A stretch of 62,656 nt of DNA, counting the filler, from Basidioascus undulatus (Eukaryota), in NCBI GenBank assembly GCA_000826855.1. It is 19 parts of 19 records of this genome, joined end to end, with 100 filler letters (N's around TTAATTAATTAA, not from the genome) between each part and the next. Parts side by side here need not be neighbours in the genome. Positions count along the whole stretch, not along the records: positions 6,704 to 29,332 come from JTLS01000292.1; 18 more parts are not named here. One strand, given 5' to 3'. Made by a program: the position numbers and the translations under genes. Numbering within the stretch: the stretch's first letter is position 1; each line of letters starts with the position of its first letter. The notes below the pieces were generated by a model that was not told the origin of the DNA, ran no database searches, and saw only the letters and a list, made by a program, of their open reading frames with translations. This document shows positions 1 through 21,494 of the stretch, piece after piece.

Positions 1-2138
1 CACCCCATCCCCTCCAGCTCCTCCAGCGCACGACACGCCACGGCGCACCCAACAGGGTGCGCCGTGTAGCTATGCCCGTGAAGCAGCGCGTGCTCCTTCT
101 TCGACCCCCGGAAGACGTCGTAGATCGCGTCGGAGGCTAGGGTGGCTGAGAGAGGGAGGAGCCCGCCCGTGAGGATCTTGGCGTAGACGGCTATGTCGGG
201 GGAGGCGCGGAGGAGGGATGAGGAGGGCGAGAGATGGCCTAGGCGGTGGAGACCGACGAAGACTTCGTCGAAGATGATGGGGAGGCCGGACCAGGTGGGC
301 GTGCCGGGAGAGGTGGAGGGGGAGGGGGGAGAAGGGGAGGGGGAGAAGAGCTGGGCCGAGGAACGCACGACGTCGATTAGGACCCGTTGGAAGAGTGGCT
401 GCGGTGGGGTCGCTCAGTCCTTCACTCTGGTCCAAGCCAGAAAAAGAAGAATGGAAGAACGGACATCAACCCAAATCATCCCCCCAGCGCCCATCAACGC
501 CGGCTCCAGCACGAGCGCCCCAAACCTCCTCCCCTCTCCACACAACCTCTCCAGCGTCCCTCGCACCCAGCGCTCATACACCCCCCGCAGCGGGTCTTCC
601 CTCAAGCGCCGCTCGACATCGTACGCGCCCTGCAGCCCGTCGGGGAGCTCCACCTCGCGGCCCCCGCCGGGGCACTCGGAGGGGAGGGCGACGACCGGCT
701 TCCCGCCCCGGAGAGTGAGGGAAGGAGGGGGGAACCAGTACCCCCCGCGCGGACGGTACCACTCTACGGAGGCGTTGTACGTCGACGGCTCGGACGCGTC
801 CATCGAGCCGATCGTGTCCCCGTGGTAGCTGCCTGCGAGGCCGAGCTGCGTCCCATAATCGCAATTAGGCTCTCTCTCTCTCTACTTCCCCTGGAAAGAC
901 CGGGTTGAGGAAGAGCAGACGGAAGAAGACGCACCACCCCCCGCTCCCCCCCCTCATCGCCGTACCGCCGCGCCACCGCGCGCAGCGCCATCTTGAGCGC
1001 TACCTCTATCCCCGTGCTCCCGTTGTCGCTGAAGAAGACCTTGCCCGCCCAGCCGCTCCCGACACCCTTGCCCGCTTCACCCGCCTTGGGGGAATGCCGC
1101 CCAAGCAGCCGCTCAGCCAGCTCGAGCGCGGGCGCGTGCGTGTGCAGAGGGAAGAGCACGTGCCCGTACCGGCCCGCGGCGTGCGCTGCAGAGAGGGTGA
1201 GGGAGGGGGAGGCGTGGCCGAGCTACGGACCGCAGCGAATTATGAGTCGGGCGGGCGGTAAGCGGGGAGAGGGGAAGAGAGGTGGGCAGAGAGTGAGTGG
1301 AAAGAAGGGAAGCAAAGTGAGGGGATGGGCAAAGGGGGATGACGGAGGGGCGGAGGTGAGGGAATAAGAGAGAGGGATCGAGACGGGTTTCAGAGGTGCG
1401 ACAAGGGAGTAAGAGGGTTAGCTGACGGGGAGAAGGGAAAGTAAAGGGGGGGAAAGACGTACGGCTTGCGTCCACCACGATGCGGACCCGTCGAGGGTAG
1501 GTGTAAGGAGGGACTGCGTCGCAGCGGGCGCGGGGGTGGGAGTCGAAGAGGCGGAAGCGGAAGACACGGGGGAGTTGCTTTTGTAGGTATCGAAGAAGTC
1601 GCCTGTCCCCCTCCTTTGTCATAAGCTGCGAAGCTGAAAACGCGGGGTAGAGCAACGCACCGTACGCGCTATCAACGACCGTCACATCCCCCCCACCCTT
1701 CACACTACTATGCTGCACGAAGGGGTACCAAACGCTCCTCACCGTCCTCTCCCCTGCCCCCTCAACCTCCCTCCTTCTCCCCTCCCACCGCTCCTCCAGC
1801 GCCTCTAGCGTCCCCCTCACTCCGCGCTCCTGCACAACAAAGTCATACCACTCCCTCATGGCCTTTTCATCCTCCGGCGACCCCTTCGGGTGCGCGCTGG
1901 TCGGAGGGGGGGGAACGATCCCGATGTGCGGGGGCGGGGTGAGCGGGGATTGGGGAAGGGAGCGCGCCCAGCGAGCGAGGTAGGTCTCATTGGAGTAGAA
2001 GGGTGAGGAGAAGATGAGGAGGGCGGGGATGGGGTACCCGCGGAGGAGGAGAGACTCGTAGGACGAGAGGGTCGTGGATATCCCCCCGAGATGGGGAGAG
2101 GCAATGAGGATTGTTGGGAGCCTGCCGGGGGGGGGGGG
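1..2138 (-). CDS. bioDA: Bifunctional dethiobiotin synthetase / 7,8-diaminopelargonate aminotransferase (BIO3-BIO1 type), internal spliced fragment
   Basis: Exons encode VWYPFVQH, VVDSAYG, VFFSDNGSTGIEVALKMALR, YHGDTIGSMDA, LVLEPALMGAGGMIWVD, IFDEVFVG and AKILTGGLLPLSATLAS (class III PLP aminotransferase with the catalytic Lys). Coding sequence continues upstream of the aminotransferase domain, consistent with the fusion. Confidence 0.88.
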
Positions 2139-2238
2139 NNNNNNNNNNNNNNNNNNNNNNNNNNNNNNNNNNNNNNNNNNNNTTAATTAATTAANNNNNN
2201 NNNNNNNNNNNNNNNNNNNNNNNNNNNNNNNNNNNNNN
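2139..2238. other. Artificial contig-joining spacer (first of 18)
   Basis: N44-TTAATTAATTAA-N44 gives stops in all six frames. It recurs at 4374, 6604, 29333, 31562, 33791, 36019, 38246, 40473, 42699, 44923, 47145, 49363, 51581, 53798, 56015, 58231 and 60444, each 100 nt. Genes are cut at these points. Confidence 0.99.
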
Positions 2239-4373
2239 CGTATCTCGCCCATGAGTCCCTCCGCCGCCTCCTCGTCCACAACCCCGTCCTTCACCACCGC
2301 GCCCCCCTTTCTCCCTCTCCCATCCTCCTCGTCCTCCCCCTGCTCCCCCCCAAGAAACCAAGCAAACTAATCTCTGACTTGGTGGACCCCCGCACAGCTT
2401 GAGTCCTCAACCTGCTACCTGCGCGGGCTGATCCACCTGCAGCTGAACGCGTCCGACCGGGCGAAGACGTGCTTCCTCGAGGCGCTCGCGCTGGACGTCA
2501 AAAACTATGAGGCGTTTGAACGGCTGGTGGGCGGCGGGATGATGCGCGTCGATGAAGGTCCGTTTTCTACCCCGCATTCTCTCCTTCCGCCTTCCTACTT
2601 CACCCACTCCCGCTTTGTTTCTTTTGTCTGCTTTTTTTCTTCCATTTTTTTCTCGGCTTTGTTTCACCGCACCCGCCCTGGCGCTTGCGGATGAGGAACA
2701 CAAAGCTGACTTTTCGAGTGGGGGGGTGGCACAGAATGGGAGTTCATCCAGAGCCTGTCGTACGCCGAGCAGACGGAGGAGGACGCCGAGTTTGTCAGGA
2801 TGATGTACACGATTCGGTTGAAGAAGGTACGCTTCCCATCTCCTTTCTCACACCTTACCTCTCCATCTCCATCCCTCTCCCTCCTCCCTTCATGTTCTCT
2901 TCTCTCTCTCTACGTCTCCTACCACCTCCCATTTCCTCTCTACCCCTTGCTGCCCTGCTCTACTCCCTCTCCTCCCACTTCCATCCCTTGTCCTTTCCCT
3001 CTCTTCCGTTTCGCACAGCAAACATTTATCTAACTTGCGAAATCCCATCCGCACCCCCCGCAGTACAAGCACGCCCCCGAAATGGCCGCGGCGCGCGCGA
3101 AGCTCGCGGACGAGTACCGGCTGGGGGAGAACGCGGACGTACTCCAGAGCTGGGCGGACACGCTCTACGCGCAGTGCCGGTTCGCCGAGTGCTTTGTAGT
3201 CACTTCCAAGTGCGTCCTTCCCCCCCCCCTTTCTCCCTTCTTCCCTCCGCTTTCCTCTTTTCTTCCACACCCGAGATGAGGTTGCTAACGGAATATGGTG
3301 GGGTTTTGTAACACTCCCAGGATCCTCTCGTCCCACCCATCCCACGCTCCCACGCTCCCCCTGCACCTCGCCTGCATGACACACCTCCCCACGCAGCGCG
3401 CGTCGGCGCTCTTCCTCCTCGCGCACGCGCTCGTCGAGCACGACCCGGACAGCGCGAGCAGCTGGTACGCCGTCGGCGTGTGGTACTACGCGGGGAAGCG
3501 CTGGGCGGAGGCTAGAAGGTTCTTCAGGTCCGTCTGTTGTCCTTTCTTCCTTCCCACCTCCCCGCTTTCTCCCCTCTTCACCTCCCTTCTTTGCTGTGGC
3601 GGTTGGTTGGGTGGTTGGTTAGTCTGACATGCTGGTGTGGGCGGTGGGGTGCAACAGCAAAGCAAGCCTCATGGACCCGCGCTTCGGCCCAGCCTGGCTT
3701 GGCTTCGCCCACTCGTTCGCGATGGAGGGCGAGCACGACCAGGCCATAACAGCGTACTCGACCGCCGCGCGCCTCTTCCAAGGGTCCGTCCCGTCCTCTC
3801 CCTCTCCCTCCGTCCCCGCTCTTCTTCTTTTCCCCTCATAAGCAAACAAGCGCTGAAAGTGTGTACACAGGACGCACCTCCCGATCCTCTACATCGGGAT
3901 GCAGCACCTCCAGCTGTCGAACCTCGTGCTCGCGGAGGAGCACCTCGACGCCGCGGCGCAGATCTGCGGGGACGTTGACCCGCTGTTATTGCACGAGCGC
4001 GGGGTGGTCGCGTACTACCAGGAAGAGTGCGTCCCTCCCTCCCTGTCTCTCTCTCCTTTCCGAGAAGGATGACCGCTAATGAGGCTTGGGGAATGCGGGA
4101 AGGTACGAGAAGGCTATTGGGCTGTTCCAGACTGCGCTCGAGCTCGCAAGGAACATGCAGAGCGGCCAGACGAGCTGGGCGATGACGCACCTGAACTTGG
4201 GGCAGGCATACCGGCGGTCGGGGTGCGTCTCCTCCCTCCTTCTCCCATATCTGTGCAAGGACTTGGATTGCTGATGGGATGGACGCTGCAGACGCCTGCG
4301 CGACGCCCAGCGCTCGTTCGAGCGCGTCATCGACCTCGACCCGCAGTGCGCCGCGGCGTACACGAGCCTCGGG
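2239..4373 (+). CDS. CDC16: Anaphase-promoting complex TPR subunit Cdc16/Cut9/APC6, internal spliced fragment
   Basis: [87 protein letters not shown] and [12 protein letters not shown], separated by GT-AG introns. Confidence 0.93.
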
Positions 4374-4473
4374 NNNNNNNNNNNNNNNNNNNNNNNNNNN
4401 NNNNNNNNNNNNNNNNNTTAATTAATTAANNNNNNNNNNNNNNNNNNNNNNNNNNNNNNNNNNNNNNNNNNNN

Positions 4474-6603
4474 ATAGGACTAAGGAAGGTGACAATAGGG
4501 AGAGGGTAGCAGAGGGTGTAGATGTCCTTGGTGAAGGGAGGGAGGGTATTCATTACAGACTGCGAAATCAAGTTTGTGTGCGCTGAACATTACATTAGAG
4601 CATACACAACCTTGAAGGAGGTATAATAGTGCAGCGCGATTGTTTAGAAGATTAATTAAGCATGAATGAGGATCTAATATAGTGGGAGGACATCCAAGAG
4701 GCTTTGTTGTTGGCATACTCACTGCGGAGTGAACAACATAAATACCACTGGCATGAGTGGCAGGGTGTGGGGACGTCAAACACAAGACAATCCTGACACT
4801 TGTGGTCCAGAAAAAGGTATTCATAAGAATATTACAAACAAGAAGTGTGAAAGAGTGGTGGCTTGACTGTGATGAGAGGAATCCGAGAGGCATGTTGAGT
4901 GTTGCATGAGTTCAATAAGGAACAATTTGGGTGCAGGATTGCCTTCATCCCAATACAAGGAGAAGAAAAATGATGGGTTTTTATACAAGCTATGTACACA
5001 TGATACTTCGGACAGTAGTCAGCCATGGCTTTTCTCCCTTATTTTCTGTCTTTCCAGTTATGCCATGCTCAGCAATCTTATGTGCAAGGATTGTGCCATT
5101 AGTGTACCAGTGGAGGGTCTGCGGTACTACCTTTTTCTCCGGTAGTACTTGGTGATATGTGGTTTTTCTGCACTGACTGCAATGAAGAGGTGTGCTTGTC
5201 CCAATTACCTTCTACACTTTTGTACACCCAAGTATGCTGTGTTCCAAGCCCAAGGCAACCCCCAAGCAGAAATTCAGTGATCTACACATCTTTAAAGTTT
5301 CTGTCCATGTGAGTGCTGGGTAGGCGAGCATTAAAAAGTGAGTTTATTGTGTTCTGACAGGCAGTGTAGCTGTCCAGTTCCATATCCACCCGTAGTCAGC
5401 AAAACCATCAGGGTGCACGCTGGTAAATTTCCTATACTTTCCATGAAAAGTATCACCTTTTTTTATTCGCCATACTGACAGACTCTGCTGGAGGCAGGCA
5501 TATGCCAGCACTGCAGGTGACACGGTGTCAGGAACTGAGCTGGGCCAGGGCAGACCGCAGTGGGGACTACCAGGAGGGTGGTGGCAAGGGTGCAGGTTGG
5601 CTGGGGACAGGACAATAGAGCAAGGGCTGGACAGAGTGGGGACTAGGGATAAGAGAGGCAAGATCAGATGGGGAGTGAGGCTAGCTGACCGGGGGCTTAT
5701 ATAGACAAGAGAGATGAGGTTGTCATGAATCTGACTGGGCAGGGCAGACCACAGCTGGGGCTACCAGCTGACGGGGCTTTATGGTGGCAGGGATAGATTA
5801 TGCGGCGAGGTAGGGCTAGGGCGTAGGGCAGGAGTGGGAGAGCAAGACCAGATGGGGAGCAAGTAGAGGGTAAGGGGGCACTCTTATAGCTACCAGAAGG
5901 GCTGTGTTGCCAAGAGGCGGGGGAGGGCGGGAGCGTGACAGGGGAGGTGACAATGGTGACAGTTGTCAAGAATCGGACTGGGTGGGGTATTCATGACAGA
6001 GGTGGAGCGGAAACTGCTAGAACTGTGGCAATGGGGTAGAGCTTGCTAGAATGTGGCAACTGGAAGCTGCTAGAAACTGTGGCAACAGTGTTGCTGGCTT
6101 TGTTCATGACACACAGTTCAATTCAACAATGCCAACAGTGCAACATGCCATTTGCAGTGCATGTTACTTCGTTAGTACCTTGCCGCATATTTGGGTACAC
6201 CAAGAGTTAAGTTGGGGACTGTTACATAGTAAGCAAGCCAGTCACCTTGGAAGATGAGAAGGGGCTAGAGGAAGTCCTTGACAGACGGTGCTTCAAGTAC
6301 CCTATGAACTATTGGGGGAGACTTCTGCAGGACTGTGGCAGGCAAAAGTGTGGAGAGCAGCATAAAGTGTGGGGCAGCACTGGAACATGGTGCAGACTGT
6401 CCTTCGGGCCATTTGGCAAGTTCGGCACACCCTCTGCTTATTTGTCATGAACGTCTTAACAAACATTCAATCCTCGACAACTGTCAAACCTTGCCACCTC
6501 ATTTTACGCTCTCACCCTTTCCTGACACACTCTCGCCCTCCCCTGTCACATTCTCACCCGAGACCCTCTCACCCTCCCCTGTCACATTCTGCGGCTTGCC
6601 CTT
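4474..6603. mobile_element. Degenerate CpG-depleted repeat/transposon relic, including probable LTR-like fragments
   Basis: Lower GC, with few CpG and many TpG/CpA, and no intact ORF. It has internal degenerate direct repeats (about 5545-5700 vs 5735-5890) and inverted segments beginning TGTCATGAA (leftwards from 5998, rightwards from 6443). Family not identified. Confidence 0.55.
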
Positions 6604-6703
6604 NNNNNNNNNNNNNNNNNNNNNNNNNNNNNNNNNNNNNNNNNNNNTTAATTAATTAANNNNNNNNNNNNNNNNNNNNNNNNNNNNNNNNNNNNNNNNN
6701 NNN

Positions 6704-7183
6704 AACAGCTTCTTCACCTCCCTCCCCTCCCCGCGCTTCACCCACGACGTCGCGCCGCATGAGCGGTCAGCAGGCCGGCTGAGCGCGCCGCACGTCTACC
6801 CGGGCGGCATGGCCGCCGCAGCCGCCAGCTACGGCTACGGCGCGCCGCCATCCGCGCACTCCTCCTTCGTCTCTGCCACCACCACCGCCAACTCGCACCT
6901 CTCGCGGTCCCCCGCGGTCTCCGAGCCGTCCTCCCCCGTCTTCGCGAATGGTGGCCCGGGAGACGACGGGCTCTCGCACCCCGGCACGCCTGTCGCTCCG
7001 TACGAGACGTACTCGGCGTACGCGACGTCCGCCGAGCCCTCGCCGTACGCGCGGCCGCTGTCTGCGCCGACAGCAATGGACCACACTGCCGACCCGACCG
7101 CGTCTTACGTCCCCCATCCCCCTCCGCATGCACACGCGCCGTCCGAGATCCATTCCCACTCCGGCTGGTCAGGCTTTTACTAG
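6704..7183 (+). CDS. 3' end of an unidentified gene (Ser/Pro/Ala/Tyr-rich low-complexity C-terminus)
   Basis: GC3-biased frame ending HSHSGWSGFY-TAG, followed by pyrimidine-rich 3'UTR-like sequence. Truncated by the spacer. Confidence 0.55.
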   Translation, partial: NSFFTSLPSPRFTHDVAPHERSAGRLSAPHVYPGGMAAAAASYGYGAPPSAHSSFVSATTTANSHLSRSPAVSEPSSPVFANGGPGDDGLSHPGTPVAPYETYSAYATSAEPSPYARPLSAPTAMDHTADPTASYVPHPPPHAHAPSEIHSHSGWSGFY

Positions 7184-8043
7184 CCCTCGTTTCGTCCAAC
7201 GACCCTTCCCTGTTGTGTTACCCCTGCATTTCGGCCGCCTCATTCCCAATCTCGCATCATCGTCGTCGCACCCACCCATCGCACTTTGTCACTCGCTTCT
7301 TTCGTTTCGTTTCGTCCTGTCCCGTCTCATATCGCGTACTTTTTTCTTCTTTCTCTCATCTCGTTACCTCTTCATTCCCGCTCTGCACTCACCCCACAAA
7401 TTAGTTGTCGCTTGACCCCTTTCTGGCAGTATCTTACCCGGATCGCCTGTTGTGTTTCCCCGCGTTCATTATACACTACCCGGAGTCCTGTCGCATACAC
7501 GCATGTCGCATACCATACCAAACCACCTGCTCTTCACTCTGCCTGACGTCTGCATCGGCTTTGCTCGCTGTGAGGTCTGGCTGGACTCCGTGACTCCGAC
7601 GAATGAGCGCTGGTATGTAGAATTTGCACAGGGCGTCTATACCAGCCCAGCGGAACCGATGCTGATCAGCAGATCTTTTGGCACCTTCTTCGCGTTTTCC
7701 AGACGCCCGCAAAGCGTTTTGCGGTTCTAGTCGGCCACGTGTGAGATTATCGCGATAAGGTTGCTCGCCAGCACGCGATTTTCTTCTATGTTGAAGACCG
7801 AAACGTGTCTCCACTGCTTCTAGCGTGCTGTTAGGTTGAAACGCCGCTATGCCCCCGTCCCCTCGAAGTGTTGATTCCACAAAATCCGGCCAATCTGCGT
7901 ACGCCGCCCTGTGTAACACTGTGCACTTTGGTGCAACGCTGTACAACTTCGAGGCCTGGGATGGAGCGTATCTCCGAGTATCTCTCACACACCACACGCA
8001 GAGCCAATGGAGTCGCAGAAACATCGAATAAATTCTGATACAA

Positions 8044-11000
8044 TCACGCCTTCGACTTCCTCTCAAAGTACAAGCTCTGGCGCGTGACAGTCGCCTCCCA
8101 CCCGGGGCACAGCACAAGCGTCTGCGTGTCGTCGATGATCATCGCCGGCCCGTTCACGAGGTCGCCGACCTCGAGCTTGGGGAGGAAGAACACGGGCGTG
8201 GACGTCCGCCCCTTGCGCTCGTAGTACACTTCCTGGTGAGAGCTCGCCTTCGCCGAGACGTCCACGGGCGCGGTTTGCAGCGTGCGCAGCTCGGCGAAGA
8301 CCGAGGTGGGCAGCGAGTCGTACGTCTTGCCGATGCCGCGGACCTGGTAGCAACGAGGGACAGCGGAATGTCAGTTGAAAAGTCCAATGGAAGTCGAAAC
8401 TCTGGCTTCGGACGCACCTTGACGTCGTCGACAACCACCTTGGCCTCGAGCAAGAAGCCGAACTCCGCCAGGTACGCTTCCTGCAAGCCCAGCACCACCA
8501 CACATCAGTTCCATGTCTCTTGCTTCGCATGCAAGTCTCTTCGAAAGCCTGCGCACCTTGAAGCTCTTCTCAAAGTCCCAGCCGTCCTTCTCGCTCGCCA
8601 GCGCCATGAGCGCCGTGTCGCTGCCCTCGAAGCGCATGTTCAAGAACGCCTCCGTCTTGACGCGACCCTCCTCCTTGAAGCCCTGGCGCCCGAGCTCCGC
8701 GCGGACCTGCCCCTCCAGCTTCGCAATGCGAGCGAGAAGGCCGGGCTTCGCAGACTCCGAGTAGGTCTCAGAGGAAGGCTCTTGCAGCTCGAAGGCGCTG
8801 AGCGAGGTGAACAAAGGGGTCAGTCGGCGTTAGAGAGGGAAGGGAGGGAATAGGAAGAAGACGCACCGGTCGGCGAGGGAGAGACCGTAGGCAGAAAGAA
8901 TGGAAGAGTACTTGTGGATGAGGACGCGCGAGATGCCGAGGTTCTCTGCGATCTCGCACGCGTGCTGGCCACCCGCACCACCGAAGGAGGCGAGACTGTC
9001 GCAAAATCATGATGAGCGAAGTCGCCCCAGGAAGTACTTCGACGAACATGCAACGTACATGTGCCTGTGCGTCGCAAAGCCCCTCGCCTCAGTCAGAGTG
9101 CGGATAGGACGGGCCATGGTCTCGTTCGCAACCTGTCCACCGCACCCACATGCGATGAGCAACAACACGACATGAGCACAGACTTGAAGAGTGCGAATCG
9201 AACCTTGATGAACCCGTAGACAATCTCGTCCAGGCTCAGGTCCGAGCCCGTCTCCCGCCGAACCTGCTCAGCGAGCTTGTCGAAGGCCGCGCGAGAGGCT
9301 GCGGGGTCGAGCGGCTCGTTCTCGTTCGGGCCGAAGCACTTGGGGAAGCTGTTGCAGGGAACCAGACATCAGCTCTGTGCTAGAACACACACAGTCAAGG
9401 TCAATGAGGAGACGCACTACTCGGGCACGAGACGGCCAAGGTAGAGGTTCGCGTCCGTGACGGCGAGAGGTCCGCCCTTCCTGCAAGTGTGCCCAACAGT
9501 CTATCTCAGTCTTCTACGTAACGCGCGAGGAGACAGGCAAAGAGTAAGGACGAACCGGTAGCACACGGGGCCTGGGTGGGCGCCGGCGCTCTCGGGGCCG
9601 GCGCGGAAGAGGCCATCGCGGAAGGTCAGGCACGACCCACCTCCGGCAGCGACGGTGTTGATGTCGAGCTGCGGGCTCTGAATCGACACGCCTGCGGTCG
9701 TCGTCTCGTACACGACCTCGTAGCGCCCGTCGAAGCGCGAGACGTCCGTGCTCGTGCCGCCGACGTCGAGACTGTCGCAGTCACAGTGCTTTCAGCAGCT
9801 ACGATGCGGCCAGGGATATCAAGGAATCACAACGCACCCTATAACCGGCGCGCGATCCTCCTCGTCCCACGACGTCAAGGCGTAACCGACAACACCGCCC
9901 GCAGGGCCAGAGAGGATGCTCTTGAGACCGGAGAAGTTCTTGGCGTCAAGGAGACCGCCTGCGGTCGAAAGCAAATTGTTCAGCTGTCTGGACTGTAGTG
10001 ATCATGAGAAAACAGACAGGCGCACCGTCAGAGCCCATGAAGCTGACGCGGTCAGAGGCGCGAAGCTCCTCGTCGAACCCGGAGAAGAAGCCGTCGAGGT
10101 ACGCGGAAAGGACAGGGGTGAGGTAAGCGTCGGCGGTGGCAGAGACGCCGCGGGGGACCATCTTTGGCGCGCGGAGACAAAAGTCAGCCTAGAGCGCGAG
10201 ATGTGAGAATGAAAAGGGAGATTATGGACCTTGATCATGGAGAGGAGCTGCGAAGATGCAGAGACCTGGGTGAAGCCCAGCGAGCGCGCGAGGTCCGCGA
10301 CGGCGGCCTCATGAGCCGGGTAGGTATAGCTGCAGGGCAGAAGAGATCAAGAGGTGCTCAAGCTTCTGAAATGAAGCAACACTGCAGCTTACGAGTGAGC
10401 GAACACAATCGCCAGCGAGCGATACCCCTCGTCATACAGCTTCTGCAAGTCGTTCTTGATATGCTCCATATCTTCATCCACGCATAATCCCGGTAAGCTT
10501 CCCAGGCGTTCTTTTCATATAATGAGCAATGGACGCACCAGGCTCCTCCAGGATCCGGACCGCCTCCCCGCTCACGCCGCGCACGATCTTGCCCGGGCCC
10601 TCGGCGTGCCCAACGCCGTCCCAGCCCTCCCCGCGGTAGCCCCGGACAACGTTGCCAGCCTCGTCGAATAGAACAGCGTTCTCTGCGGCGTGGGGGTCGG
10701 ACGTGAAGCCGACGAGCGTCACGCGCTCGCTCACTTCGAGGACGCTGGAGTACAGGGTGGAGGGCCTGCAGGGACGAGCGTAAGCGCTGGACTGGAAGGG
10801 AAATACGGCTGAGAAAAGGAAAGACGCACTTGGAGATAGCAAGGTCGAAGATGCGGGGACGGGACTGGTTGCCGATCTCGAGCAGGTCCTGTGTGCAAGG
10901 TGAATGTCAGAGAGCGTTGTCACTGACAGCGTTAGGCAGAAAAGCGCACCTTGAAGCCCTTGGTGATCACGAGCGCGTGCTTCTCGCCCTTGCGCTCAAG

Positions 11001-11426
11001 CAACGCATTCGTCGCGACGGTGGTAGACAGTCGGATGTAGTCTATGTTGTCCCACGCGAAGATTGCTCAGCCGAGGCAGCTCTTCAGGCAGTCCAAAGAA
11101 GACGACGCACCGAGCTTGGAAGAGTCCAGGGCGCCGCCACGGGGGATGGTCTTCCCGGACGCGATCTCTAGCACACGGCGGATACCTTCGGTCGGTGCAT
11201 CACGGTAGTTGGCAGGGTCTTGGGACACTGGTGGCCGATATCGTCAAGGGCTTCAGCTGCTCGCCCTTCGCTCCTGGCACACATTGAACGAGGACTTACG
11301 GAGCTTGACGACAATCTCTTTGCGCTCTCCGGAAGGACTAGGGAACGAGGCGTGAACATCACAGAAGGTGCCGCCGCGGTCGGCGCACACGCGAACGGAG
11401 CGGTCGGGAAGAGTCCAGGAGGCCAT
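8044..11426 (-). CDS. 5-oxoprolinase/hydantoinase A half (ATP-binding), stand-alone multi-exon gene
   Basis: Starts [24 protein letters not shown]. Contains [90 protein letters not shown] and MRFEGSDT. Ends [38 protein letters not shown], at the usual A/B boundary. Confidence 0.93.
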
Positions 11427-11996
11427 GATGGAGTGTCAGTGGGAGTATGCGATAAAGTGATCGTTGTTCAAGTTCAAGATGGAATGCAGAGTCAAGGATG
11501 TGAGTGGTAGTTGCAGTTCGAATGTCCGCGATTGATGAGCGGCTGCACAAGGCCAATCTCCCGAGCTGCGAAGAGCGGAAGTCGAGCGGTGCGGGGGCGA
11601 GGACGATGTCGCCAACTTGCGCGGACCTCAAGTCCGGGCGAGATGTGCCGCCGGGCCCCTGCCGCGTGCGCTCGTTATCTCCCTCCCCCGCCCAACTCCC
11701 GCCAGTCGTGTGCGCTCTGCGACCATGTCGGTGGGTACTTCCGGTCCCTGTCTATCCAAATTCTAATAAAGTTCCGGTCCATTTCCCTGGCTTCACCTGG
11801 AGCGAGCCCGAGAGAGAGCGAGCGAGGCACTCCGAAGCGGGAAGCACGAGGACGTCTTCCTTCAACTTGCCATCCTCATCCACTGACTTCTCTCGAGCTC
11901 AACAACTCGCACACCCCCACTCATCACATCCGCACATTACTCTCTCTTGATCAATCCCAACTTACCATCGCGCTCCCCGTCCCCTCGAAGCCCGCG
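11427..11996. promoter_or_regulatory. Putative bidirectional promoter between the two oxoprolinase halves
   Basis: 570 bp between divergent ATGs. Contains GAGCGG x3 (11537, 11573, 11584), TTCCGGTCC x2 (11739, 11772), CCAAT (11553), and a pyrimidine-rich leader before the B-half ATG. Confidence 0.7.
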
Positions 11997-14691
11997 ATGC
12001 CCGTCCCTACCAATGTCAAGCCGGGGCCTGACCCCGTCACGCTCTCGCTCTTTTCCAACCGCTTCATGTCCGTTGCGGAGGCGATGGGCCGCTCGCTCCA
12101 GCAGACCTCTATCTCCACCAACATCAAGGAGCGCCTCGGTAAGTCGCGCTGCTGTCGGAGACTCGGGAGCGAACGCGGCTGACTGGGCTTGACGTCTTCA
12201 CAGACTACTCGTTAGTTTCACAACAGGTTTCCTGAAGCCATGAACTGCTGAACTGATAGAAACTCTTCTACCAGCTGCGCTGTGTTTGCGCCAGATGGTG
12301 AACTTGTGGCGAACGCGCCGTTCATTCCCGTCCACCTCGGTAGCATGTCCTTGTGCGTTTCCGCTCTGGCGTCCCTCGCTCGTCTCCAGCTCACTTATGG
12401 GTCCCAAATGCAGTGCTGTCAAGTACCAAATGAACCTCCACGGCGCGTCGCTCAAGGCGGGTGATGTGCTCATGACCAACTCGCCCTCCGCGGGCGGATC
12501 CCACCTGCCGTGCGTCTCGCCCATCTCCCTGCAACCACCCCCCTAGGCTGATCTTTTGCCACAACTAGCGACATCACCATTATCACCCCCTGCTTCTCGC
12601 CCCACGACCCCACCAAGATCATCTTCTTCACTGGTTAGTCCTTCCCGCGTTGCGCCGACCCACCTCTCGCCCTAACCTTCGCTGCGCAGCTTCCCGCGGG
12701 CACCATTCCGATGTTGGCGGCATTCTCCCCGGTTCTATGCCGCCGACCTCGACCTCAATCACCGAGGAGGGTGCTGAGGTCGTCTCGTTCAAGATCGTCG
12801 ACGGCGGGAAGTTCGACCGGACCGGGCTGTACAAGCACCTCGTCGACGAGCCTGCGCAGTGGGAGGGCAGCTCCGGGTGCAGGAACTTCAGGGACGTCGA
12901 GAGCGACCTGAAGGCGGTGCGTGATTCCCGAGATGAACTTTACTTTCTTTCGAGGCTCATCCAGGCGCGCGATGCGGAACAGCAAGTCGCCGCGAACCAC
13001 AAGGGCATCACGCTGCTCCACGCGCTGTGCAAGGAATACGGCCTGGAGACGGTCCAGCAGTACATGCAGCACATCCGGGAGTGCGTCCCACTCTCCTCTT
13101 CTCATCCCGATACTGCGGCAACTGACACTGAACGCGCACTGTGCAGCAACGCTGAGCAGTCCGTGCGTTCGCTCCTGCGCGAGGCTGCCCGTCGCGCGGG
13201 GACCAACGTCCTCCGTGCGCGCGACTTCCTGGACGACGGCTCGCCGGTCAGTCTGTCGTGACTTCTACTGACTACACATGACTGTCTTCTGACGAGGGAT
13301 GGACTGTGTGGGCACTCAGATCGAGCTGGAGATCACCATCGACCCCAACACCGGGTCTGCCATCTTCGATTTCGAGGGCACCGGCCCGGAGCTGCGCGGG
13401 AACCTGAACGCCGTGCGTGTTTTCCTTTACCTGAACTTCACTCGCGTCTCTGACAAACCCTTTCCTGCTTCCACACAGCCCATCTCCGTCGTCCACTCCG
13501 CCGTGATCTACTGCATGCGCGCGATGTGCGGCGTCGACATCCCTCTCAACGCGGGGTGCTTGGTCCCCGTCACGATCAAGATCCCGCAAGAGTCCCTGCT
13601 CAACCCGTCCCCCGAGGCCGCCGTCTGCGGCGGCAACGTCATGACCTCCCAGCGCATCACGGACGTCGTCCTGCGTGCCTTTGAGGCCTGCGCGGCCAGC
13701 CAGGGCTGCTGCAACAAGTGCGTTCCTTTTGAGCTCCTTCCGGTATGTTCCGCGCAACTGCTGACGTCCTGGATGGACAGCCTGTCGTTCGGCGCTGGTG
13801 GAAAGGACCCGAAGACGGGTGAGATCAAGCAGGGGTGGGGCTACTGTAAGAAATTTCTTGTCGTGGCTTTAAGGGGGCTCTGCTGATTTTTGGTCCCTGC
13901 AGACGAGACGGTTGCTGGTGGATCGGGTGCGGGCCCGACGTGGAACGGCACTTCCGGCGTGCATGTGAGTGCGACGGCACATCTAACGTAGCTTGTTACG
14001 GCATACTGACTGCTTGTTTTCAGTGTCATATGACGAACGTTCGTTCACTTCTGCTCTCCGCCGATCAACCCCGTTGAGCAGCTGTGCTGAACTGCCCCTT
14101 CCTTTCAGACCCGCATCACGGACCCCGAGATCATGGAGCGGCGGTATCGTGCGTTTTCACCTTTACCACAGCTTTCGCATTGAGATACTGATGTCTTCGA
14201 CACCATGCAGCCATTGTCCTCCGCCAGTTCTCTTTCCGCCCTGGCTCCGGCGGTGTCGGCGCGCACCCCGGCGGTGACGGTGTCATCCGTGACTTTGAGC
14301 TCCTGATGCCGATGCAGATGTCCATTCTGTCCGAGGTCCGCTTTCTTAATCGAATCTTCCGCCCAAGCCCCGATGCTGACGTCCTCCATCGATCTCACAG
14401 CGCCGTGTTCACCAACCGTACGGCCTCGAGGGCGGCGGCCCTGGCGCGTGCGGCAAGAACATCTGGATCAAGCAGCCTGCAAAGGAGGGCGGGAAGGTCC
14501 GGACGATCAATCTCGGCGGCAAAGCCACCGCTTTCATGGGCAAGGGCGACCGCTTCGTGCTCCACACGCCCGGCGGCGGCGCCTGGGGCGCGCTGGGAGC
14601 TGAGAGCAACGCGGTTGCGTCGAAGTTAGGATTCGAGCCGCGGGGGAGCCTGGCAGAGCGCGCGGCGGCGGAGGCGGCGTTCGGGGCGTAA
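11997..14691 (+). CDS. 5-oxoprolinase/hydantoinase B half, stand-alone multi-exon gene
   Basis: [141 protein letters not shown] and TPGGGAWG. Ends [12 protein letters not shown]. Confidence 0.94.
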
Positions 14692-15978
14692 TTTCGAGTC
14701 GGCGTGTGTGTATGTGTTGAGTTGTGTAGCGGACGCATCCCGCTCAATTTACCTTGATGTCTTCTATTGCGTGCGGTTTCTTCATACTTGGCCAGTTGAT
14801 AGACAGCAAGACAGTGACAAGGCAGCGAACCCTCATTGTCCAACTGGAATTGCTGCGATAGTCCCGCAGGATGTTTCTCGCCTTCGCGCCAGGTCAGTTG
14901 AGGCTGCAGGCCCACTAGCTGGCATTGACCGGCGCGGAGGGATGTCGCTTTCGGTCGTCACGTCGGCTTCTGGCTTATGTTATGTGCGCAAGACCGCACA
15001 CGACAGTCGGCCGGAAGAGGCGCAAGCACACGCATCTCCGCGGGCACAAACTACTGCTAAGGGTTGTTCTTGGTGGTTCGGGCAGAAGTTTCTGCCTTGC
15101 ACTCAGTGATTAAGGAACCAAGCCGCAAGCTATACAATTTTCAACGCCCTGAGCTCGCAGCGGGCTCGTTCCGTGAGATTGTCTTACATATTGCCGAATG
15201 TACCAGGAGCGCCGGCCAAGATCTTCCCTGGGTGGGACTGGAGCTGGACAACCCACTGCCAGGCTACGGCGACGGCATTGACCCCTCGGTCCTATCCGTT
15301 ATTCTGCCTACGATAACACTGTAGTTCCTTTCAACTTGCGCGCCGGGTCACCTTCACAGGCATTAATAATACTGATATCAATACATAGAGTGTGAAAAGC
15401 CGATTCGAAAGGAGGCCTCGAACTTCGCATGTCCTTCGGCCTGCAGTCGAGGCAAGGAGCTGGGCAAGTCCTGATGAGTTCCGGCTAAGAGCGCTCGCTC
15501 TTATCTCTAGCTCGGCAAGACTATTCGACTGCTCACGCGGGACCAACCTTAATATCATTGACCCTCCACTCTATTGGCCTCAAAATTTTGGTCGATTGTC
15601 TTGACATGCCATTTTTTATTTTCTGCATCATGTGCTAGGCTGCAACGCCACTTTCATGCACATCTCCTGGAGAGTTCCGGGGAGTCGCCCTCCGTCTTCT
15701 CTCTCCGCTTCTTTACCGCTCTATCCTGTGATACTGACAACCAGCGCCTCGCGGTCCCTTCGAATCGATCATTCACACCAATTTCGACGCCGCGAGCGCT
15801 TATCGCAACCCTCCTCGGCTCTCTACTACCGTGTGCGATACTCGGCGAAGTCCTCAAAGACGCCGTCGCATCGCACGATCAACGCTCCTTCCTCACTCCC
15901 TCACGCACGCGACATCTTCCCCGCACTTTCGCGCTCGTCGCATCACTCTCTCGAACTCTGTTGTCTCGCGCCGTAAAC

Positions 15979-18796
15979 ATGTCCGGGGATGTAGAGAAGG
16001 CCTACGAGGCCGACCAGAAAGTCGCGTCCTCCGTTCGAAGCTCGCCGCAAGAGAGTACTCAGGATGACCTGGCTAGCGAGCATCTCGACCCTGTGCGCTT
16101 TGCACTCTTCCTCGAATGGCAACGCAAGCTTACCTATCTTATCCGTGCTTGTTGGTCCCAGGCTGAGGAGGTAAAGCTGCTTCGAAAGCTGGACATCAAC
16201 ATCGCACCCGTTCTGATGGTGCTGTACGTCAGCTCGTTATGCCCGGTCTGCATTGAACTCCAGCTGATTCTCTTGTCTGCGACAGCTATCTTATTTCCTT
16301 CCTTGATCGTTCCGTGAGTATCGAAACGCACCTGTCCTTCAAACTCGCTGACAGTTCGAAACGCAGAACATCGGTAATGTGCGTCCGGGAGGAGCTGGGA
16401 GTTGAGCCTGGACAACTTCTAACGCTGCTGCTGGCCGCAGGCATTGTCGGCGGGCATGGCCGAGGACCTCAACCTGCCTACGGAAGGCAGCAACGTTGCT
16501 GTTTCTATCTTCTATGTGAGTTCTACGTCTGCAGGACACTAGGCATCAGCTAATATGTCATCCCTCCTCTTCAGGTTACCTACGTCGTTTTCGAAAGGTC
16601 TGTCGCCACTTTCGGAATGTCATGAAGGTTTTGCTCAATTCTGCTCCATTCGCAGCCCCCTCGCTACTCTTCTCAAGAAGCTGCGCCCGAGCCGGATGAT
16701 TCCCTTTATTGTTGTGGCATGGGGTACGTCCAGCTCTTAAACATGATTGACTTTCGCTCTAGGCTCACAAGTCAGGACAGGCTGCGTCGTGATTGGTTCC
16801 GGATTTGTCAAGAACTACGCTGGTCTCATCGTCTGCCGTCTCGTACATAGCAAGGCTTTTTCGTACCTGTGGGCCGAGCTGATCGGCGAGGACATGCAGT
16901 TCCTCGGTGCGGGCGAGGCAGCGCTTTTCCCCTGTCTCACCCTCTACTTGACTCTCTTTTATAAGTGCGTTACCTACTCGAATCCTGAGGTTCTTCTTCT
17001 TACAAGGCAGTTTACAGACGCACTGAGCTTGCTCGGAGGACGTGCTACCTCTTCGTGGCTGCCGCGTACGGTCATTTGCTGTGCCTCCGGTGCCCTGCCC
17101 GCTAACGTTTATGCCAACGTCAGAATTTCTGGCGCGTTTGGTGGACTTATCGTAAGTCTACTCCAGGTCATCGTCCATAGATCCTAGAGCTCATTTGCTG
17201 CGCTACAGGCCGCCGGTCTGCTCAAAATGGAAGGCATCGCGAACTTGCATGGCTGGCAATGGTGAGCATTTTCCCGGCTGGATCGGCTGATTTGCGAGGA
17301 AGCTGATGGCTTATGTTCCCACAGGCTCTACATCATCGAGGGTCGGTTGAGCAAACGACGCGGCTTGATGTACACTCTCCTGACCTGGCAGCTTCGACTT
17401 CGCAGGTCTCCTCACGGTGGTCATCGGTTTCGGCGTCTTTTGGCTGCTGCCCGACAACTTTGAGCACGCATGGTACCTGAACGACCGGGAAAAGCACTTG
17501 ATGCGGTGAGTCACTCTGCAGTTTCGGTCGACAATGCGCCCCATCTGAACTCAGGCCACGTACGCAGCATTCGTGCCGAGCAGACCAAGGCTTATCTCGG
17601 TGTTGAGGAACACTACTGGAGGGAGGTGAAGAAGGCCCTGCGCGACCCGAGCCTCTACATCAGCGGCTTCTGCCAGCTGGGAGCGGACATTTGCCTCTAC
17701 GTGAGCAGCCTACTTGTTCGAACATTGATGGTCGCAGGCCGCTGACGTTGAGCTGCAGGGCTACTCCACTTTCCTCGTCACTATCCTCCGCGGCTTCGTG
17801 CGTATCATCTTGATGTGGAGCTTACCGGCGATGTGCTGACTTACTGCGGTTTTCTTCAGGGTTACGACACGATACGTGCCAATCTCATGACCGCTCCTGC
17901 TTATGCCTGGGCAGCGAGTGCGTTTAGCTGTGCTCTTTTTAATATTCAGGCAGTTGTTGAATACCAGCCCTTCGCCATAGTCGTCTACTTCTGCCTTGCC
18001 GTCATCAGTGATCGTTATCAGAAGCGCGTGGCCATCCTCATGCCGCTCGGCACCATTACTGTGTAAGTCTGAGCTACTTCCTGAAGTACATGCTGGGAGC
18101 ATCTGCTCATTTCTGTTCCGGCTACACAGCGTCGGCTACGCTATCCTCCTTGGCGTGCACGACTCGAACGCTGTGAAATACTTCGCCTGTTTTGTCGTTG
18201 GCACAGGGTGGGTTTCTCGTTCAAAGCCGATACAACCCTTTCAGAAGCTAACTCTTTCTGTTTCACAGGATTTACGTAACTGTTGGCTTGAACCTGACAT
18301 GGTTGAACCAGTGCGTGGCCTCCTGCGTTTTCATTTGTCGCATGCGTTGAGGCTCACCCAAGTGCGACACAGAAACCAAGCTGGATTCTTGAAGCGCAGC
18401 ACGTCTCTTGGCTGCCAGCAGACCTTGGGCAACATTGGCGGCGTGATTGCTGGGTCCGTCGCAGAATTTGCTGCCCATACCCCGACCGCACACTCACACC
18501 CTGACTACTTCAGGCAAATTTACCGCTCTACCGGTGCACCTAACTATACGGTTGGACACGCCGTGTCGTTGGCCGGCATGTCCTGGGCAGTGATTGGTTT
18601 TGGCGTGGTTTGTGTTTTCTGTTTATAATGGAGTGTGGATCGTTCGCTGATATTTTATTTTGATCGGCAACAGCAAGCGTACTTGTGGAAGCGTCGCAAC
18701 GCTCGGAAGGATGCCATGACCGAGGAGGAGAAAGCCGAGCAGGACGCGCAGGGCGTCACGGGCGATGCGCACCACACGTTCCGCTACGTGTGGTGA
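15979..18796 (+). CDS. MFS transporter, anion:cation symporter (Dal5/Tna1 allantoate/nicotinate permease-like) family
   Basis: Manual splicing (23 exons) gives an open frame: KLLRKLDINIAPVLMVLYLISFLDRSNIGNA, CRLFLGAGEAALFP, ISGAFGGLIA, LHGWQWLYIIEGLLT, KRSTSLGCQQTLGNIGGVIAGQIY. Ends GDAHHTFRYVW-TGA. Confidence 0.92.
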
Positions 18797-19350
18797 CGGC
18801 GTTAGTGTCGATTCAACGAGGCCATGGGACATGTGCGGTTATTTGGTACCGCTGTATTGGGCATAGCAAGCATAGATAGCTTGAGAGGTGTGCATGTTGG
18901 CTGCAGGAGCCGCCTGAAGACGACGCTACGTTTAGTGCAATGTCAAGCAAGCTGACACTATACCGCAGGCCCTCGAGTGTACTGTTTTAATTATGCCTGA
19001 TCAAATTAGTTGATCCACATATTCAGCCGTAGCTGACTTAGTTTGAGCAGCTTGCCGAACTATACACAGCAAGACCGCACTCGCATTTCCTCCCGTCTTT
19101 GTCTGTTCGTCTTTCTGGGTTCAGATACTCACTGTGCTTTGAGTTCAATATCTTCAGTAAGCCGAACATGTCACTATGAGCCTCGGCGACGAATCGGCAA
19201 TTCGAAAGTCTTCGCAGCGCAGCGAGGAAGCCGACTCAAACCGCCGCCGCAAAAGCGCTGCCGCAAGCCGCCGGCGTCCAGGCGAGGTCGCCGATTGACC
19301 ACCACCATCCCCAGTCCGCTTTCCCCGCATCAGCAGCACTGACCCAGTTC

Positions 19351-21185
19351 ATGAGCTGGAAGCCGTCTTTCGATCGAGCACTCGTCGCTTACAATTCCAC
19401 GAAATACGATGAGGGACTCAAACTGCTCGACGAAGTCCGTGCATCCCCTGACCCGCCATCCTTGGGAGCGTAAGCTTGCAATAGCTCACCCCATTTATTA
19501 ACCGTCTCATATAGGTCATAGCATCTGGAAAAGAGCATGCTGCGGTCCACCACTTGCGATCTCAGGTCTTGGAGAAGCTCGGCCGCCCAAAGGACGCGTT
19601 GAAGGCCGCCAAGCGGGTCATCGACCTCGCACCAGACTCCACGAAGGTGCGCGGTACCCAAACTCTGGCGAAATATCCCAATTGGTGTTGACGTGAAACC
19701 ACGAGGACAGGGATACATCCGATCCGCCAAGCTCTTCATGCTCGTCTCGAAGCCGTCCTCGGCGCTCCCGATGCTCAGCCTCGCGGAGGCGCGGACGAAG
19801 TCCGCCGACGTCCAGGCAACGATCGCCTCGCTCCGCGGTTCCGCGCTCGCAGTCCAAGCCGCTCTAGACAAAGCGCGTACGAACTACGTCCAAAATCTCC
19901 CTCTTGAGATTTTCCATGTCATCGCCACACATGTCGGCAATCCCGTCCGCCTCTCGCACGTCTGCGCGGCCTGGCGACGCGCCGCGCTCGGCTCGCCGGC
20001 CCTCTGGCGCAGCCTCGTCGTCGGGAAGAATCGTCCGGTCGAGAAGATCAAGTGGTTCATCGAGCTTTCGGACTCTCACCTAGACACCGTTCGGCTTCGT
20101 CTTCCCGAGAACGCGCCCGACGTTCATCATCTCTTCTTCCCTTGCGCGCCCTCCATTCGCACGCTCGACGTCCTCACCAGCTCGCTTCGCGCAGCTCTGA
20201 GGTTTGCGAAGGAGTGCACCGAATACGAGCTTGATCACTTCCGGCTGGCTTCGCGCGTCGGCACTCCCCTAGCCGTTCATCTCCCGACTGTCCGGCACAC
20301 GCTCGAGCTCGAGAACCTCATCATCCCCGCGTCGCCTGCAGGCTTCTCGCCGATCCACGGGCTGCGCATTCTCCGCCTTTCAAACGTCATGCAGGCGCCG
20401 TCGTCCTCGGAACCCTCGCAGAAGTTCATCGGCCTGCTCGGACACTGTCCCGAGATCGAGGAGCTCACGCTGCGCAACTGCCTCTGGTGGGACGACTACC
20501 CGCCGGACGACATAGACGGGGACGATCGTCCGCCGCAGCTCGCCCGTCTTCACTCCATCGCGCTCGAAAGCTGCGGCCACTTCGCGGTCGACTTTCTCTT
20601 TCGGATCGACACACCTTCGCTCGTGTCGCTCGACCTCCGCAACTACCCCGCGTCCTTCCGCCCCTCGATATCCCCCCAACTCGCCCTCCTCGCCGCGCGC
20701 ATTCCGCAATTACAGCACCTCCGCCTTTCCGCCTCCCCCGTCTGCGACAAGCTCCTCGACGCCCTCGCACAATTGCCGCTCCTCCGCACGCTCGACGTTG
20801 CACGCACCTCCCTCACCGCCAACTTCTTTGCCGCCCTCGGCTCGTCCGCGCCCCTGCTCTGCCCGGCTCTCACCGCGCTCAATTTCTCTCGCTGCGAGGT
20901 CGTCCGCGGGCGACACGTCCTCGAACTTGTGCGCGCGCGGCTCGCGACCACCGTCGCCGCGCCAGTCGACGAGCTCGTCCTGGACGGGTGCGTCAATGTC
21001 GAGCCCGAGGTACTCCCTTGGCTTCGTGCTAAGGTCGAACGTGTGAGCTGCGTGTACGAGACCAAGACCGAAGCCATGCGTGCGCCGCGCCATCGCCATA
21101 TCACAGGTGCGTGGGCCACGCGTCTTTCATTGTGTCGTGGGACCCAATTGACAATGCGGTTGCTCGGCTCGCAGTTGCGGTGTGA
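19351..21185 (+). CDS. TPR / F-box / LRR protein (Pof3/Dia2-like SCF substrate receptor)
   Basis: N-terminal TPR-like exons (LRSQVLEKLGRPKDALKAAKRVIDLAPDSTKGYIRSAKL), an F-box (LPLEIFHVIA...LSHVCAAWRRAALGSPALW) and LRRs (CPEIEELTL, LRTLDVART, CPALTALNFSRC). Start and last exon are inferred from splice signals. Confidence 0.8.
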
Positions 21186-21494
21186 TGCTTGCGCTGGAGG
21201 GTTAGCTTGTCCTTCCTTACCCGCGAGGGGGTCGACACAAGTGCTTCATGCTCTTGAGTACTACACCCACTGGTGCTTAGCTCGAATCAGTCTGGTACAA
21301 CAACAGGCATTTGTATTCCCTCGTATTTTGACAATTCTTGGAGCCTTTTACCCGAGGGACTGAAATCTAAGGCAATCTGAAAGCGCCACCAGAGGGAAAT
21401 GCTGCGTAGCCTGCACCGGGTCATGGTTCGGTGTCAAACCCAGCTGTTCACATGTTGAGGCCCGTAGTGTAGAGCTGAAATTAATATCCGACTT

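Follow-up and report, generated by a model that had tools for sequence, protein, structure and literature searches.

In animals, plants and most fungi, 5-oxoprolinase (OPLAH of animals, Oxp1 of yeast and plants; EC 3.5.2.9) is a single polypeptide of about 1250-1350 amino acids in which a hydantoinase-A half lies N-terminal to a hydantoinase-B half, and the locus described here raises the question of how the two halves of such an enzyme came to be encoded by two genes on opposite strands. The locus occupies positions 8044..14691 of a 62,656-nucleotide stretch of DNA from Basidioascus undulatus (the window; all positions are counted along this whole stretch), within the part contributed by JTLS01000292.1 (6704-29332). 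With a probability of about 0.8, the gene pair is the Basidiomycota form of the canonical eukaryotic adenosine triphosphate (ATP)-dependent 5-oxoprolinase of the OPLAH/Oxp1 type, divided by an old fission in the linker between its two halves, both of which were kept.

Two genes in place of one

The full set of four Pfam families that characterizes eukaryotic 5-oxoprolinase is present at this locus, but it is divided over two genes. In exon-sized reading frames, Hydant_A_N, Hydantoinase_A and Hydant_A_C match the minus strand only (11426 to 8044), and Hydantoinase_B matches the plus strand only (11997 to 14691), over profile positions 1-519. The halves lie on opposite strands, have their own start and stop codons and are represented by two transcript contigs, and so do not form the single polypeptide of OPLAH/Oxp1.

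Gene models were obtained by protein-guided spliced alignment, to protein P0005 for the A gene and to the Kwoniella protein P0030 for the B gene, and both models are also supported by the Pfam matches and by transcript contigs. The A gene (8044..11426, minus strand) encodes 762 amino acids, from an ATG at 11426-11424 to a TGA at 8046-8044, in 17 exons: 11426-11300, 11227-11111, 11041-10950, 10888-10830, 10765-10539, 10471-10393, 10329-10230, 10161-10026, 9958-9838, 9771-9556, 9480-9418, 9348-9204, 9132-9059, 8995-8867, 8797-8557, 8480-8418 and 8343-8047. The B gene (11997..14691, plus strand) encodes 580 amino acids, from an ATG at 11997-11999 to a TAA at 14689-14691, in 16 exons: 11997-12138, 12204-12210, 12275-12352, 12414-12509, 12569-12633, 12690-12916, 12983-13080, 13147-13246, 13320-13412, 13479-13717, 13781-13845, 13903-13964, 14024-14038, 14109-14148, 14211-14335 and 14401-14688. 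Neither model contains a frameshift or an internal stop codon, and the introns measure 56-76 nucleotides. There is no N in 8044-14691 and no 44-N mask within 6704-29332, so the stretch is gap-free. An earlier, sequence-only reading of the locus had described two intact, intron-rich genes in a gap-free contig, and the spliced models agree with it, down to all four start and stop codons. Masks of 44 N's occur in pairs, spaced about 2.2 kb apart, at 1-6703 and again from 29333; they do not look like assembly gaps.

Matching contigs were found in three sequencing runs: X1 and X2, which come from two studies, and X3, which comes from the same sample as X2. The third run is recorded as 'DNA?' and was taken as RNA-derived solely from its intron-less contigs, which skip introns with GT..AG ends and therefore derive from spliced RNA; X3 behaves like a transcriptome assembly of X2's sample. 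One of its contigs (record 6, 2468 nucleotides) covers the A gene on the minus strand at 8047..11608, its 5' part extending 182 nucleotides past the ATG, and another (record 7, 2081 nucleotides) covers the B gene on the plus strand at 11701..14733; these limits do not fix the true RNA ends. The two lengths are exactly the genomic spans less the 16 modelled introns of A and the 15 of B. The 15 introns of the B gene appear as 13 joints in its contig: the alignment predicts micro-exons of 7 nucleotides (12204..12210) and 15 nucleotides (14024..14038), both on the plus strand, and the contig has 7 letters between the sides of the joint 12138>12275 and 15 letters between those of the joint 13964>14109. 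An exon of 7 nucleotides is unusually short. Fifteen of the 29 joints, two of them in the A gene, were inspected one by one, and the remainder are covered by the length arithmetic. All 31 introns are confirmed by the spliced contigs of X3, which represent two separate mature mRNAs, one per strand, from divergently transcribed genes.

The start codons are separated by a spacer of 570 nucleotides (11427..11996) with a G+C content of 59%, of which only the 92 nucleotides at 11609-11700 lie outside both transcript contigs. This spacer presumably holds a bidirectional promoter together with both 5' leaders. A single upstream ATG, at 11725, is found in the leader of the B gene, in a different reading frame from the B start codon; no ATG occurs in the A leader as far as the transcript contig covers it.

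The catalytic motifs are retained. Alignment columns with at least 95% identity among 62 fused proteins number 109 in B and 82 in A, and the window matches 107 and 78 of them, respectively. The A protein has DxGGT ATP motifs at residues 16 and 355, along with GxxPGP-type and GGAGG motifs. The B protein has an Asp-His-Asp-His metal tetrad (D48/H106/D109/H134) that aligns, through P0030, to D41/H99/D102/H124 of the bacterial protein CapB. According to the CapAB study (PMC8453981), this CapB tetrad and two aspartates of CapA are required for activity, and the subunits co-purify as an (alpha-beta)2 assembly. One departure is the histidine of a NAPH motif, at least 95% conserved in the 62 fused proteins, which is replaced by phenylalanine at residue 66 of the window's B protein (exon 12275-12352; residue 65 of P0030). 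Phenylalanine is nearly invariant at this position in 32 basidiomycete B-only proteins, and the residue does not belong to the metal tetrad.

By homology, the A and B proteins would form a heteromer with activity on 5-oxoproline. The A protein, with its ATP-binding, actin-like fold, and the B protein, with its metal site, may associate non-covalently in the manner of bacterial CapAB/HyuAB-type enzymes, and the pair would then use ATP to open 5-oxoproline to glutamate, with activation in A and hydrolysis at the metal site of B.

The closest characterized systems include the fused OPLAH/Oxp1 enzymes. They share with the window the domain content and order, 55-63% identity, the ATP motifs and the metal tetrad, whereas the window has two chains of 762 and 580 amino acids from divergent genes, short unaligned ends in place of the linker, and the NAPH substitution. 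Bacterial HyuA/HyuB-type lactamases (CapAB, PDB 6yra; OplAB; hydantoinases) likewise have separate subunits with the same domain boundary and, to judge from CapAB (PMC8453981), probably the same scheme of activation in A, a tunnel, metal-assisted hydrolysis in B and (alpha-beta)2 assembly. However, CapAB is not close kin of the window proteins (expectation values, E, of 4.9e-33 for CapB and 2.1e-41 for CapA), and the bacterial genes form one operon on one strand, whereas those of the window are intron-rich, divergent and split secondarily from a fused ancestor. Among solved structures, the best matches are a fused N-methylhydantoinase (PDB 7hk5), CapAB (6yra), and acetophenone and acetone carboxylases. 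The strongest of them for both halves, 7hk5 (1288 amino acids; E 2.5e-57 for A and 6.4e-48 for B), is colinear with A followed by B, but it is a distant relative, a single chain with a different named substrate.

Origin of the split

The position of the break was read from 12 fused fungal proteins. In these, the alignment with A mostly stops near residue 730, which corresponds to about residue 754 of the 762 in the window's A protein, and the alignment with B begins 11-28 residues later, at residue 12 of the window's B protein (residue 3 in one case). The linker of the fused proteins is thus roughly 16 residues long, a figure taken from BLAST coordinates only, as a motif-distance pattern matched nothing in the fused rows; the window has instead an unaligned tail of 8 residues on A and an unaligned head of 11 residues on B. 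The A protein ends a few residues after WEATVT, and the B protein starts 11 residues ahead of [13 protein letters not shown]. The tails of A-only proteins and the heads of B-only proteins are of similar lengths across basidiomycetes. By these alignments the break lies in the inter-domain linker, where the sequence-only reading had placed it, and nothing conserved is lost.

The protein database that was searched does not contain the window's own species. A search with the C-terminal exon of the A gene gave 29 matches, none of which carries Hydantoinase_B; 23 of them are proteins of 681-805 amino acids with all three A domains, the other six are shorter pieces of 217-501 amino acids, and every match with an organism name is from Agaricomycetes. 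An exon frame of the B gene matched 1221 proteins. The 120 that were listed are all proteins of 352-677 amino acids with Hydantoinase_B only, and those among them with an organism name are all from basidiomycetes (Tremellomycetes, Wallemia, Dacrymycetes and many Agaricomycetes); the best identity over the B exon frame, among the matches listed, is about 61%. The full B model is 71% identical to Kwoniella P0030.

Fused proteins are the nearest relatives outside the basidiomycetes. When P0030 was compared with proteins of 1016-2900 amino acids, the best 120 matches were all fused, with 57-63% identity, and none of the 100 with an organism name was from a basidiomycete; they belong to Mucoromycota, Glomeromycota, chytrids, Zoopagomycota-type fungi or Ascomycota. 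Overall, the nearest non-basidiomycete proteins are fused 5-oxoprolinases of 1250-1350 amino acids from other fungi and animals, at 55-63% identity. In a search made without a word index, the top match was a B-only protein of 628 amino acids from Tilletia maclaganii (Ustilaginomycotina), and most other rows were fused proteins with B at the C-terminus. Twenty rows of this search were identified by organism, the fused ones including proteins of the aphelid Amoeboaphelidium, Dimargaris, two insects (annotated as 5-oxoprolinase), a nematode, a red alga and a stramenopile. Split halves are annotated as separate proteins in dozens of Basidiomycota, and three subphyla were seen.

Phylogenetic trees (IQ-TREE, LG+C20) place these proteins where a fission within the Fungi would put them; supports are values of the Shimodaira-Hasegawa-like approximate likelihood-ratio test (SH-aLRT). 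In a B tree of 92 rows, the window groups with 28 named B-only proteins in a single clade (99), which is sister to 12 fused proteins of Ascomycota (91) and lies within the fused proteins of Fungi, with those of animals further out. An A tree of 63 rows has the same pattern, with support of 97 for the A-only clade and 99 for Dikarya. A smaller B tree of 60 rows, free of long branches, recovers the basidiomycete clade at 100 and the Ascomycota clade at 96. The window is sister to Wallemia in the B trees (96-97). Because every outgroup is fused, the split is the derived state. Together these trees indicate one old fission at the inter-domain linker rather than descent from a bacterial HyuA/HyuB pair. 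The proposal that a fused eukaryotic enzyme underwent fission, made earlier from the sequence, is supported by the nesting of both halves within the fused fungal and animal clade, and the grouping with never-fused prokaryotic subunits that would have spoken against it is not seen in these trees.

Five proteins of B-only length (P0281, P0349, P0309, P0365 and P0321; 554-687 amino acids) are found outside the basidiomycete clade. In a B tree of 76 rows that includes them, they fell beside fused proteins, a stramenopile or an ascomycete, and the ancestor of the window and the named basidiomycetes still held exactly 29 tips (99). These five could reflect incomplete gene models or splits that arose independently in other lineages.

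Gene order and competing explanations

The arrangement of the two halves was examined in metagenome contigs, where 79 loci were sorted by tblastn with the A and B models of the window. A and B are colinear on one strand, as in the fused type, at 53 loci. At six others (L001, L008, L009, L021, L045 and L051), A is immediately upstream of B but on the other strand. No A was found at the remaining 20; the contig extends 1.1 kb or more upstream of B at 11 of these, which are informative, and is too short at the other nine. Although drawn from four sample sets, the six head-to-head loci reduce to two lineages, L001 and one near-identical group, both Tremellomycete-like, and their spacers measure about 405-665 nucleotides. 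Tremellomycetes have two paralogous B genes (P0042 and P0046 in Cryptococcus neoformans). In the 60-row B tree, L001 groups with the paralogues of Vanrija, Saitozyma and the second C. neoformans gene; L008, L009 and L045 group with the other set, which includes Kwoniella and the first C. neoformans gene. A head-to-head A gene is thus present in environmental relatives of either paralogue, which suggests that Tremellomycetes duplicated the divergent pair whole. L001 is represented in the A tree by a piece of 85 amino acids that fills only 11% of the columns, and its later full spliced model is in no A tree.

Elsewhere the head-to-head order was not seen. Loci that fall next to Tilletia (L013 and L016) or among polypores (L022, L025 and L043) have no A within 2.4-8 kb upstream of B. 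A and B are on different contigs in Gelatoporia, Coprinopsis marcescibilis and Pholiota conissans, and in Phellopilus they are on contigs of different length. In Rhizoctonia solani both are on the same contig, with accession numbers that differ by three in one assembly and by 48 in another. The head-to-head order persists in one branch but is missing from others, and the split enzyme therefore cannot depend on a shared promoter. The sequence-only reading had supposed that a shared promoter maintains the stoichiometry of the two subunits; with three Agaricomycetes unlinked and 11 contigs lacking an upstream A, such a promoter cannot be essential.

How the divergent order arose is a separate matter from the fission itself. 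A single inversion at the base of the Basidiomycota, whose breakpoints fell within the linker codons and ahead of the promoter, could have produced a start-to-start pair around the old promoter; the head-to-head arrangement would then be the surviving original state, which Tremellomycetes duplicated whole and which was dispersed later in Ustilaginomycotina and crown Agaricomycetes. This proposal is tentative, and somewhat more apt to be wrong than right. Alternatively, the genes may have been separated in some other way and joined only later, in the branch of Wallemia and the Tremellomycetes, which is a serious possibility although it too falls short of even odds. The divergent order has been seen only in the window and the two Tremellomycete-like lineages, all within a single clade of the B tree (94), and a late origin would account for the five loci without a nearby A and for the unlinked genes of three named Agaricomycetes. 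On the other side, one inversion would give exactly the observed order with the old promoter in between (a point of reasoning only), bringing unlinked genes together start to start within 400-700 nucleotides is less likely than losing a linkage, and Rhizoctonia, an early-branching Agaricomycete, still has A and B on one contig. Were the inversion true, it would be a clean rare genomic change at the level of the phylum, and a natural experiment on the value of the covalent link in a tunnel-coupled two-site enzyme.

The other alternatives concern what the pair is. It is unlikely, but worth weighing, that the proteins descend from 5-oxoprolinase and now act on another lactam, a hydantoin or a related ring, with 5-oxoproline handled elsewhere in the cell. 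The family has switched substrate repeatedly, giving rise to caprolactamase, N-methylhydantoinase and acetone and acetophenone carboxylases (PMC8453981), and a change of function would fit the basidiomycete-wide replacement of histidine by phenylalanine at a position that is at least 95% conserved, the two B paralogues of Tremellomycetes and an extra fused copy in one genome of the Agaricales. Against it stand the 55-63% identity to fused animal and fungal 5-oxoprolinases, a branching position that is the one predicted by the species tree, the retention of 107 of 109 and 78 of 82 conserved columns, with every known catalytic residue among them, and the absence of basidiomycetes from the 100 named best fused matches. 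Horizontal acquisition of a prokaryotic HyuA/HyuB-type pair, with no fission at any time, is very improbable and already contradicted: two-subunit forms are the common state in bacteria (PMC8453981), and bacterial B-only Hydantoinase_B clusters score as look-alikes in a protein atlas, but each gene of the window has 15-16 spliceosomal introns, the closest relatives beyond the basidiomycetes are fused eukaryotic proteins, the A and B trees both nest the halves in Fungi, and the match to CapB is far weaker than those to fused fungal proteins (E 5.5e-223 to 6.4e-211). An assembly artefact, in which one fused gene was broken by a misassembled inversion, is scarcely credible. The DNA contigs of X1 (22.6 kb) and X2 (62.6 kb) each span 7000-16000 unbroken with one differing letter, at position 9642, where the window has T and all three runs have G (a synonymous change, GGA to GGC, at Gly396 of the A gene). 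The window may itself derive from these DNA runs, but each half has its own start, stop, leader and spliced transcript contig, dozens of further genomes are annotated with the split, and six environmental contigs, drawn from four sample sets, show the head-to-head order as well.

Several observations weigh against reading the pair as the split 5-oxoprolinase of the Basidiomycota, or limit how far that reading extends. If X1 and X2 are the window's own source, their agreement with it counts only as absence of conflict and not as independent proof. The trees are 'quick' IQ-TREE runs with SH-aLRT as their only support, and the larger ones have long branches among the outgroups; the long-branch rows are not needed for the conclusions used here. 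No protein of Pucciniomycotina appears in any match list, so a split of the whole phylum is not established. Subject to this, the question of how widely the split extends, which the sequence-only reading had left undecided, has an answer: it is spread across the Basidiomycota and publicly annotated in many genomes there. Desarmillaria tabescens (Agaricales) encodes a protein of 1144 amino acids (P0297) that is colinear with the fused enzymes of ascomycetes over its full length, and its B part falls outside the basidiomycete clade, with Ascomycota (91, on a long branch). P0297 could be the result of horizontal transfer or a retained old paralogue; either way Desarmillaria carries a fused gene too, so the split pair is not always the sole member of the family. 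The NAPH substitution could mean altered chemistry, and the assembly and substrate of the pair are assigned by homology. Descent from the fused 5-oxoprolinase by fission nevertheless remains the favoured explanation of the pair.

Neighbouring genes and significance of the fission

Downstream of the B gene, a multi-exon gene on the plus strand lies at about 15900-18800, and a transcript contig covers the region from 15714 on. Single exon pieces of this gene gave no significant Pfam match; to judge from its exon translations, it may encode an anion:cation symporter of the major facilitator superfamily, of the allantoate/nicotinate permease type. Further along, an open frame of 586 amino acids (19603-21360, plus strand) gives a weak match to an F-box-like family (PF12937, E 1.8e-4) that falls short of the curated cut-off.

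No published description of this split was found in full-text literature searches, which did not cover supplements; it could be listed by Leonard and Richards 2012 (PNAS), reportedly a genome-wide survey of fungal gene fusions and fissions. The split is already visible in public annotation, where the halves carry assorted names, and as data it is thus nothing new. Other fungal gene fissions have served as rare genomic changes, such as those of the folate gene fol (PMC4224340), which resemble the present case in having a lineage-marking break with both parts kept.

The locus represents a clean, old and lineage-wide fission of a textbook enzyme and not a new kind of enzyme, function or pathway. 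Each half is often labelled '5-oxoprolinase', 'cytoplasmic protein' or 'hypothetical protein' and is counted separately in omics papers, several of which report several '5-oxoprolinases' in basidiomycetes; annotation of this family should therefore be read with caution. The fission may be useful as a rare-genomic-change marker for the Basidiomycota. Covalent linkage of the ATP-using half to the metal-binding half would appear to be dispensable, having been absent, as the comparisons suggest, throughout the history of a large group of fungi. The gene pair, with a shared promoter in some species and without one in others, offers a natural system for studying stoichiometry and coupling in a two-site tunnel enzyme.

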